Made by a program: the position numbers and the translations under genes
In this document: positions 7,409 to 9,692 of the stretch, piece by piece
Position numbering within the stretch: position 1 is the first letter of the stretch
Layout: every line of letters starts with the position of its first letter
Notes under the pieces: generated by a model
Databases searched by the model: none
What the model saw: the letters and a program-made list of their open reading frames with translations, nothing else
Told to the model about the DNA's origin: nothing
Origin: a virus
DNA: 18,953 nucleotides
Strand: one strand, 5' to 3'
UHGV virus genome: UHGV-1695118

Positions 7409-7948
7409 ATGAAAAATGATTACGGCGGCAGCCATACGCCGAAAGAAATAAAAGACTTATGGCAAACGCCAAAACCTGTTTTTAGAGGAATGGATCGTGA
7501 ATTCGAATTCGTCGCGGATGTGGCGGCAAACAAGGCAAACGCATTAATCCCGCGATATATAACCGAAGAAATGGACACGCTCCATTATCCGTGGGGAGCG
7601 GTGGCGATGCCTGGCGAGTATGTCTGGATGAATCCGCCATATTCTAATCCGGGACCATTCGTTGATAAGGCGGCGCTTGAACATCAACGAAATCACATTG
7701 GCTGTGTAATGCTATTGCCCGCTGACATTTCTGTTAGCTGGTTTATGAACGGCGTGGAGACGGCAAACGAATGCCGATTAATCACGCGCGGGCGTCTGGC
7801 GTTTATCAATGCCGCTACTGGTAAGCCAGCAAGCGGAAACAATAAGGGTAGCTTGTTTTTGATCTGGCATCCACGGTGCAGACATAAATGTATTTTCACG
7901 CAGATAACACGTAAAGAGCTATATGCAAGAGGTGCAGAAAATGAGTAA
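7409..7948 (+). CDS. dam: Phage-type DNA N6-adenine methyltransferase (Dam-like)
   Basis: 179 aa. Catalytic motif NPPY in WMNPPYSNPGPF, with a downstream LLPADISVSWF segment typical of the small phage Dam family. AAGGGGG upstream of the ATG. Confidence 0.8.
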   Translation: MKNDYGGSHTPKEIKDLWQTPKPVFRGMDREFEFVADVAANKANALIPRYITEEMDTLHYPWGAVAMPGEYVWMNPPYSNPGPFVDKAALEHQRNHIGCVMLLPADISVSWFMNGVETANECRLITRGRLAFINAATGKPASGNNKGSLFLIWHPRCRHKCIFTQITRKELYARGAENE

Positions 7949-8453
7949 AGCGGCTGAATTGCTAAGACTTGCGGCTGAAACTATTGAGGCAAGAGGGGAA
8001 CAAAACGGATACGATCGAAAAGAAGAAAAATCAGCGCCAAAAATAGCGGCTATTTTCAACGCTAAGAAGGGGACAAATTTAACCCCACTTGATGTATGGG
8101 ATCTAATGATTTGCCTCAAGGAAGCGCGTTTAGGGGCTATTCTCGCTAATGGAACTGATCCGCTCGACACTCTTATAGACCTTATTGCTTATAACGCGCT
8201 TAAGGCCGAACAGATATTAGCGGAACGGGAGGAAGAACAAAAGAAAAAACAGGGCGTTTTTGATCTCCCTATCGGTGGATTGAAGAAAACTTTTGCTGAT
8301 CTTGCTGGACCAGAGCCATCTATTGTACCTGGGACAATCCCACCTGTGATGTTTTACGGTGGTGAGATTACTAATCGGCTTGATGTGAAGTTTGACAACG
8401 AATCGCTATTACGCGCGGCGGGGTATCATAAAAATGGAAAGGGTGACAATTGA
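7941..8453 (+). CDS. Hypothetical protein (170 aa) inside the putative modification module
   Basis: ATG 7941 with AAGAGG 8 nt upstream, within ORF-track frame 7923..8453. Overlaps the dam stop by 8 nt and the next gene by 20 nt. Confidence 0.6.
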   Translation: MSKAAELLRLAAETIEARGEQNGYDRKEEKSAPKIAAIFNAKKGTNLTPLDVWDLMICLKEARLGAILANGTDPLDTLIDLIAYNALKAEQILAEREEEQKKKQGVFDLPIGGLKKTFADLAGPEPSIVPGTIPPVMFYGGEITNRLDVKFDNESLLRAAGYHKNGKGDN

Positions 8454-8937
8454 CAGGTTATTAGCCTGCGTTTATGTCGCCGTTTTTGTGATCATCAATC
8501 TTATTGTTAATCATTGCGGCCCGTGGGTAATTCCGATCACCACGGTAGCCGCCGTGTGTGTCAATATGATGATCCGTGACCTCCTGTTATATGACGGCGG
8601 CCTGAAATGGTCGGCTACAACATGCGCCGCCGCTGGCGCAATCACGGTGCTGATAAATTACGACGCCGGAATGGTGGCGATCGCGTCATTCGTTGCGGTT
8701 GTTTCCGGTGCACTTATTTCTGGCGGCGTTTACCGGGTTTTGCCTGGTGGCTTTGATTCTAAACGTTGGCCTGCAAATATAGCGTCCGCCATTGGTGATG
8801 CGTTAATTTTTCCTACGCTATCGTTTATGGCGTTTATGCCGGAAATATCAGCTATGCAATTCATCTCAAAAATGGCAGCGGTAACGGTGATCACCATCAT
8901 TATGCGCCGCTATTTCACGTTTGAGGGTAGAAAATGA
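8434..8937 (+). CDS. Multi-pass membrane protein, possibly VUT/YhhQ-family (queuosine-precursor transporter-like)
   Basis: 167 aa from ATG 8434 within ORF-track frame 8392..8937. About 4-5 hydrophobic helices. Segment KRWPANIASAIGDALIFPTLSF resembles the remembered YhhQ segment RRWWLAPTASTLFGNVSDTLAFF. The family call is tentative. Confidence 0.35.
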   Translation: MERVTIDRLLACVYVAVFVIINLIVNHCGPWVIPITTVAAVCVNMMIRDLLLYDGGLKWSATTCAAAGAITVLINYDAGMVAIASFVAVVSGALISGGVYRVLPGGFDSKRWPANIASAIGDALIFPTLSFMAFMPEISAMQFISKMAAVTVITIIMRRYFTFEGRK

Positions 8938-9692
8938 GCAGGGCTAAACATTGGTTAAATAATTGGCTTAGAAGTTGGGTGGTGTGGTCGCTGTACGACG
9001 GCAGCGGGTACGCCGTTAAAGATTGGGCGGAAGCTGGATATAAGTGCTATTGCTTCAACTATGACGGCGCAAATCACGGAGATTATGAAGGCGTTAAAAT
9101 CATTCATCCAAATATTGAATACGTTAACGTCTGGATTGATAGCCATTTCCTGGTAATGTTCTCCCCTGAATTGTCTGTTTATCCAGAGCCTGACATTATC
9201 CTGGGCTTTCCTCCATGCGACGATCTCGCTGTGTCAGGCGCTCGCTGGTTCGTTGATAAATACAGGAAAGATCCTTGTTTTCAGAATAGGGCGGCAAGAA
9301 ACGCAATGTTGGTTGAATCTCTGGCTAACATGTATAACGTGCCGTGGATGGTGGAGAATCCTGTTGGTGTGCTGTCAACGCTATGGCGTAAACCGGATTT
9401 TATCTTCAATCCTTGCGCTTACGGTGGCTACCTGCCGGAAGATGACAAGCATCCTGCTTTCCCTGATGTTTACCCACCGCGCGACGCGTACACGAAGAAA
9501 ACTTGCATATGGTGCGGCAACGGATTCAGGCAGCCGCTTTTTAGACCTGTAGATCTTAACTCTGGTGATAACCCTGGGTGGGCGAAAACCGGAGGCAGGA
9601 CGAAACGAACAAAGATGATCCGCTCACTAACACCGCGTGGCTTTGCCCGTGCTGTATTCCTGGCTAACCATGACCGCGTTTTATCGGACTGA
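8934..9692 (+). CDS. Compact C5-cytosine methyltransferase-like protein
   Basis: 252 aa. ATG overlaps the upstream stop (ATGA). C5-MTase motifs occur in canonical order and spacing: motif I LYDGSG (about aa 20), motif IV GFPPCDDLAVSG with the Pro-Cys catalytic dyad (about aa 92), motif VI MVENPVG (about aa 130). Also carries CIWCGNGF. Short for this family. Confidence 0.5.
   Translation: MSRAKHWLNNWLRSWVVWSLYDGSGYAVKDWAEAGYKCYCFNYDGANHGDYEGVKIIHPNIEYVNVWIDSHFLVMFSPELSVYPEPDIILGFPPCDDLAVSGARWFVDKYRKDPCFQNRAARNAMLVESLANMYNVPWMVENPVGVLSTLWRKPDFIFNPCAYGGYLPEDDKHPAFPDVYPPRDAYTKKTCIWCGNGFRQPLFRPVDLNSGDNPGWAKTGGRTKRTKMIRSLTPRGFARAVFLANHDRVLSD

Follow-up and report, generated by a model that had tools for sequence, protein, structure and literature searches.

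A conserved VUT/YhhQ-superfamily membrane protein of mEp021-like temperate coliphages encoded without a DpdA partner

The DNA analysed here (the window, 18,953 nucleotides of the virus genome UHGV-1695118) is the early-right/nin region of an mEp021-like temperate coliphage or prophage. Its genes run from an ERF recombinase and an SSB, through several small ORFs, to Dam, a DUF6378 gene and the open reading frame on which our study focused, for brevity the permease gene. A 252-aa methyltransferase-like gene, NinG, RusA, a Q-type antiterminator, holin and lysozyme follow. The features that enter the argument are these:

7409..7948, + strand: Dam, an N6-adenine DNA methyltransferase (Pfam Dam, E 9.3e-52), two genes upstream of the permease gene and in the same operon.
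7923..8453, + strand: DUF6378 gene, the upstream neighbour (Pfam DUF6378, 31.7 bits), given for context only.
8434..8937, + strand: coding sequence of a VUT/YhhQ-superfamily membrane protein, 167 aa with six predicted helices, of the short phage subfamily (phrog_4899).
8761..8826, + strand: KRWPANIASAIGDALIFPTLSF, the helix-5 motif (codons 110-131), the most conserved motif of the family.
8934..9692, + strand: 252-aa DNA (cytosine) methyltransferase-like gene (phrog_757 'DNA methyltransferase', E 1.1e-86).

The permease frame has 167 codons on the + strand, from an ATG at 8434 to a TGA at 8935-8937, and is tightly packed between its neighbours: its start overlaps the 3' end of the DUF6378 gene by 20 nt, and its stop codon shares ATGA with the start of the 252-aa gene. 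A scan for promoters and terminators revealed no + strand promoter-like site near the permease gene and no excess of signals, which fits expression within a longer rightward operon. The corresponding CDS in E. coli M1/5 (DNA identity 99.8%) carries the label 'hypothetical protein' (WP_178318142.1), and the counterpart in mEp021 is gp32, a 'putative membrane protein, 6 transmembrane domains'; existing labels for the gene are just 'hypothetical' or 'putative membrane protein'. It is carried by seven sequenced mEp-type phages and by 35 of the 5,426 complete E. coli genomes, where it is chromosomal in every case.

The genes on either side are of uneven stability. The DUF6378 gene invariably lies between Dam and the permease gene in mEp021-like loci and in one further locus (L015), and its product is 50-96% identical between related, otherwise near-identical phages. 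This product also matches PHROGs labelled 'phosphofructokinase' (phrog_474, phrog_1167), a label that looks doubtful. Neither it nor the 252-aa protein has PDB relatives by sequence, and the latter has no match in Pfam or NCBIfam either. Inspection by eye showed in the 252-aa protein motifs resembling those of C5-methyltransferases, namely SLYDGSGY, FPPCDD (PPC), ENPVG (ENP) and RSLTPRGFARA, and a target-recognition region that is very short; its PGAP label differs between genomes, being either 'DNA cytosine methyltransferase' or 'hypothetical'. About 7 of 46 related contigs, and locus L022 as well, lack the gene or carry a truncated copy, while their permease gene is intact.

The permease gene is better conserved than these neighbours. 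Its product is 96-100% identical across the 46 IMG/VR viral contigs and at least 30 of the 31 distinct alleles are intact, while in the same contigs neighbouring genes vary or are lost. Comparisons with relatives of 80-97% protein identity (Nei-Gojobori) gave dN/dS of 0.04-0.15, with dS of 0.36-1.2. Strong purifying selection thus acts on the gene. Together, these data speak against a chance ORF or a remnant and mark a core gene that is conserved amid mosaic surroundings. It might be argued that the frame is nevertheless a decaying remnant, or a mis-annotated hydrophobic frame without function, given that its direct Pfam score is below threshold and that, as detailed below, the usual partner gene is missing. 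Such a frame should be hard to reconcile with the low dN/dS, with intact alleles that are better conserved than the surrounding genes, with a confident structure prediction and with the detection of 260 homologs; the selection and conservation data alone have effectively refuted this explanation.

The first-pass annotation had tentatively proposed, from a single alignment, that the product is a YhhQ/VUT-like membrane protein. This proposal holds for the superfamily and fails for the direct models. The VUT family (TC 2.A.88) corresponds to Pfam Vut_1/DUF165/COG1738. When the VUT/DUF165 search suggested as a check was run directly, the match to Vut_1 (PF02592) was not significant (E 0.18, 12.6 bits vs a gathering score of 27.2), although the sub-threshold alignment still runs end to end, pairing residues 13-157 of the protein with positions 6-149 of the 152 in the profile. 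Neither of the NCBIfam equivalog models for YhhQ (TIGR00697, NF008406) matched the protein, whereas E. coli YhhQ, our positive control, scores 229.6 and 391.8 bits on them. The protein is not an equivalog of E. coli YhhQ.

Superfamily membership comes instead from transitive homology, from profile-profile homology to YhhQ, from phrog_4899 and from an ECF S-component fold. The match to phrog_4899 is strong (E 5.6e-47, 161 bits) and covers residues 2-163 of the protein and positions 2-172 of the 175 in the profile. Searches with tblastn recovered homologs with 28-36% identity in nine other phage lineages (E 2e-10 to 1e-23), several of them annotated as 'VUT family protein', and the homologs of PEAT2 and AB3P2 (tblastn E 4e-12 and 8e-10) exceed the Vut_1 cut-off of 27.2 with 38.1 and 39.1 bits. 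A profile built from the window clade alone, run against 1.84 billion representatives, retrieved 260 proteins at E<=1e-3, and Vut_1 is matched by 98 of the 101 full-length homologs obtained with it. CAjan gp41 (159 aa), which has been published as a phage 'YhhQ', reaches 56.9 bits with the family profile. The same superfamily includes E. coli YhhQ (b3471; NF008406/TIGR00697; PF02592), to which hhalign aligned the family profile over 143 columns (probability 94.4%, E 8.5e-8), although pairwise BLASTP between the two proteins gave only E 0.2. Searching PDB sequences with the family profile returned chance Tim22 matches only, and a scan of the genome-contig collection gave no match. All things considered, the protein is very probably a VUT-type permease.

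Within the superfamily, the protein belongs to the short (~155-175 aa) phage 'YhhQ' subfamily, which has already been described. Like the phage proteins annotated as 'YhhQ / putative preQ0 transporter' (CAjan gp41, PEAT2 gp18, Opt-719 gp66), it falls in phrog_4899, in the 155-175 aa length class and among proteins of six helices, and its identity to the homologs of isolated phages is that of the tblastn hits above. It also shares their motifs: the N of helix 1, the RD after helix 2, and N..(A/S)..D(S/A)..FP..(A/S)F in helix 5. E. coli YhhQ is longer (221 vs 167 aa), the loops being shortened in the phage protein, and two Asp of YhhQ align with N44 and S96.

An AlphaFold2 model (pLDDT 94.2, pTM 0.87) and a hydropathy scan both place six helices, at about 8-27, 30-50, 57-75, 77-100, 112-132 and 137-158, which replaces an earlier count of four to five. 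The C-terminal tail is basic (RRYFTFEGRK), compatible with the positive-inside rule. The modelled fold is of the six-helix type found in the S components of ECF transporters, and E. coli YhhQ has a six-helix inner-membrane architecture as well (PMC5372724). Foldseek searches of the model against PDB and BFVD returned weak matches only (E >= 0.015), pointing toward S components and a 'vitamin uptake transporter'. The likeness to S components such as RibU, FolT, BioY, ThiT and BtuM is one of predicted fold: sequence identity to them is only 8-15%, EcfT/EcfA genes are absent near the permease gene, and these S components carry vitamins, not 7-deazapurines.

The most informative region is helix 5, for which the family consensus reads RxNxSNxxxAxVDSxxFPxxAFG. 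The resemblance of this segment to YhhQ, noticed in the first-pass annotation, was reproduced by both BLASTP and hhalign, which align KRWPANIASAIGDALIFPTLSF (residues 110-131) to the YhhQ segment RRWWLAPTASTLFGNVSDTLAFFFIAF; the motif itself pairs with TASTLFGNVSDTLAFFFIAF of YhhQ. All 101 of 101 homologs have D122, and conservation is at least 94% at N115, F126 and F131. The protein retains the most conserved polar intramembrane residues of the family, namely N22, R48, D49, N115, D122, Q142 and K146.

What these proteins might do in phages is suggested by the genes next to them. In nine of nine other phage lineages (PEAT2, Acinetobacter AB3P2, the Opt-719 group, LHE71, RCIP0319, Tbat1_6, Phc, Lg3 and ECO111 5-P), the homolog directly adjoins a phrog_887 DpdA gene, with local HMM scores of E<=1e-91 for the latter. 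The CAjan homolog is located within a folE-queD-queC-queE-dpdA cluster. Furthermore, a metagenomic protein of 278 aa (P0100) fuses a QueF-like domain (PF14489, 30.5 bits) to a short VUT domain (50.4 bits), and this fusion acts as a 'Rosetta stone' that ties the short VUT subfamily to preQ0 chemistry. Adjacency to DpdA, the CAjan cluster and the fusion make the link of the subfamily to 7-deazaguanine metabolism solid.

The two-gene cassette of permease and DpdA, in which the genes often overlap, recurs in unrelated phage groups: Peatvirus (PEAT2, L003 5004-6229), Obolenskvirus, Drexlerviridae and a bat-faeces siphovirus (L005, L009-L014). No preQ0 genes are annotated within the fetched flanks of these loci. 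In a phage census table of 2019, PEAT2 appears with DpdA but without the adjacent permease.

The window phage departs from this pattern, since the short phage YhhQ genes named above adjoin DpdA or sit in a preQ0 cluster, and it has neither. The DpdA HMM, whose reach is such that it detects the distant CAjan DpdA at E 3e-10, found nothing in the window, in the complete mEp021 genome, in the 46 IMG/VR loci, or in the loci of four clade relatives (P0009, P0013, P0018 and P0004). No preQ0-pathway genes are annotated in mEp021, Pfam scans of its larger unnamed proteins gave no TGT- or Que-like enzyme, and DpdA DNA of the Drexlerviridae type is absent by blastn from the 5,426 complete E. coli genomes. 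The initial suggestion that the gene points to precursor uptake linked to nucleic-acid modification is thus unsupported for this phage, which has no DpdA and no preQ0-pathway gene. The 252-aa gene holds the usual position of DpdA and was considered as a hidden version of it, yet was rejected as it has no similarity to DpdA.

The relatives show how the locus varies within the clade. The order Dam, DUF6378, permease, methyltransferase-like gene and NinG is kept around P0009 (52% identity), whereas the methyltransferase-like gene is missing from the locus of P0004 (87% identity); P0013 is a more distant clade member (44% identity). P0018 lies on a 128-kb phage-like contig (L020), in a setting quite unlike a lambdoid nin region, with DNA ligase, RNA ligase, a SIR2 protein and a cREC_REC protein as neighbours and no DpdA within 5 kb. 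Three metagenomic homologs lie on contigs whose short length makes them uninformative about context. In a neighbour-joining tree the window clade is monophyletic (100% bootstrap), separate from its short phage YhhQ relatives and with substitutions of its own, and its sister is the DpdA-linked clade of Drexlerviridae (88% bootstrap). The simplest history appears to be one loss of the DpdA partner, the permease being retained under purifying selection, in which case the clade would descend from a DpdA-linked ancestor.

Does the permease still serve hypermodification of phage DNA? It would do so if preQ0-type bases were inserted by an unrecognised transglycosylase, either a DpdA from another part of the lysogen or a phage enzyme such as the adjacent 252-aa protein. 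The tight linkage of the subfamily to DpdA in other phages, the DNA-modification genes around the permease (Dam and the methyltransferase-like gene), an N4/N6 methyltransferase elsewhere in mEp021 and the overlap of the permease stop with the start of the 252-aa gene all fit such a role. Yet the HMM that reaches CAjan DpdA matched nothing in mEp021 or the 46 related contigs, and the complete E. coli genomes are devoid of the Drexlerviridae-type gene. The 252-aa protein is unlike DpdA, has the PPC and ENP motifs expected of a C5-methyltransferase, and is missing or truncated in about seven of those contigs and in L022, where the permease persists. We thus regard a continuing role in hypermodification as very unlikely, and the same low probability attaches to any link between the permease and modification of this phage's own DNA.

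A different possibility is that the permease acquired a new function after the loss of DpdA, its S-component scaffold being adapted to another purine, a vitamin or a cofactor, or to some task unrelated to transport, for instance superinfection exclusion or the timing of lysis. Relative to the family consensus, the clade differs at several positions (D44N, H/Q52L/F, W55G, D96S, N112W, S114A, S123A, G132M, G149A and W153I); the polar replacements among them (D44N, S123A and a hydrophobic residue for H/Q52) and those in glycine motifs would fit a change of this kind. So would the monophyly of a clade that never has DpdA alongside, strong purifying selection on a gene deprived of its usual partner, and the heterogeneity of COG1738, members of which may carry other purines (PMC5372724). 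However, the clade has kept every one of the family's most invariant polar residues, and several residues that seem lost are also lost in DpdA-linked relatives: D96, N112, S114 and W153 are lost in the sister clade of Drexlerviridae. Few changes, about three, are left as specific to the clade, namely H/Q52 to hydrophobic, S123A and the glycine positions. Moreover, we found no feature of a holin or an exclusion protein, and the neighbouring genes suggest no alternative substrate. We consider a new function unlikely, although less so than a role in hypermodification. The substitutions make a changed substrate, mechanism or role plausible; they allow such a change and do not show it. D44N and D96S were also examined as marks of loss of function and set aside as not diagnostic, as the DpdA-linked Drexlerviridae lack D96 too and position 44 is I in CAjan gp41.

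The evidence as a whole is best explained, and in our view with fair probability, by a solitary VUT permease that imports a base of the 7-deazaguanine type in a lineage that lost DpdA and kept the permease. Taken separately, a 7-deazaguanine substrate is a tentative assignment, with chances a little short of even. YhhQ is required for the salvage of preQ0 and preQ1 in E. coli (PMC5372724), and the phage protein may likewise draw preQ0, preQ1 or a closely similar purine from the medium. The putative six-helix inner-membrane permease would act alone as a substrate-capture protein, since E. coli K-12 has none of the ECF energising modules and YhhQ genes do not cluster with such modules (PMC5372724). 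Its position in the rightward early block, between Dam and the ninG/rusA/Q antiterminator genes, suggests production during lytic growth. Since the lineage encodes no DpdA, an imported base could not enter phage DNA through a phage enzyme, and it would rather feed the Tgt/queuosine-tRNA pathway of the host, unless the permease has shifted to another small substrate. A host queuosine route has been raised by Hutinet et al. for phages with preQ0 genes and without DpdA (PMC6884629).

Two further points weigh against this reading. As E. coli already possesses a YhhQ and a de novo queuosine pathway, it is hard to see what additional import would gain, and deletion of the CAjan homolog by Kot et al. 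left DNA modification unaffected (PMC7544227). One could go further and suppose that the stand-alone permease, left after DpdA loss and used lytically, reprograms host queuosine-tRNA with preQ0, preQ1 or queuine from the gut, or imports a base for an unrecognised DNA modification, possibly with the methyltransferase-like neighbour. We judge this more specific scenario improbable.

Phage-encoded YhhQ homologs have already been published (PMC6884629, PMC7544227, PMC6266253, PMC8310023), and our results thus extend known biology and overturn none of it. What appears to be new is the family assignment for the mEp021/mEpimmI group, together with the contrast between a widespread cassette of permease and DpdA and a clade with the permease only. 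The main text of the 2025 mEp021/mEpimmI genome paper contains neither 'queuosine' nor 'VUT' (PMC11893012). A core gene of these gut-prevalent coliphages hence gains a family assignment, and the permease-only clade offers a natural case for asking whether a phage YhhQ acts on host tRNA queuosine or on phage DNA.

Two other protein architectures emerged from the analysis. The leftward early operon of mEp021 encodes gp12 (L007 7737-9221, - strand; L001 1-898), a protein of 494 aa with five treble-clef zinc-finger repeats (DUF4379), CapR-homology domains and a C-terminal T5orf172/MUG113 (GIY-YIG-like) domain. Among the homologs of the permease, about 25 are longer (~290-340 aa; P0031, P0038, P0039, P0042, P0047 and others) and combine a short VUT domain, a signal-like hydrophobic segment and a C-terminal domain of ~130-170 aa, which often ends in an aromatic residue and then basic ones (WFRR, YFRK) and in P0080 matches DUF5020. 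These long homologs could be genuine fusions or the result of merged gene calls; either would link a permease to a possible outer-membrane barrel.
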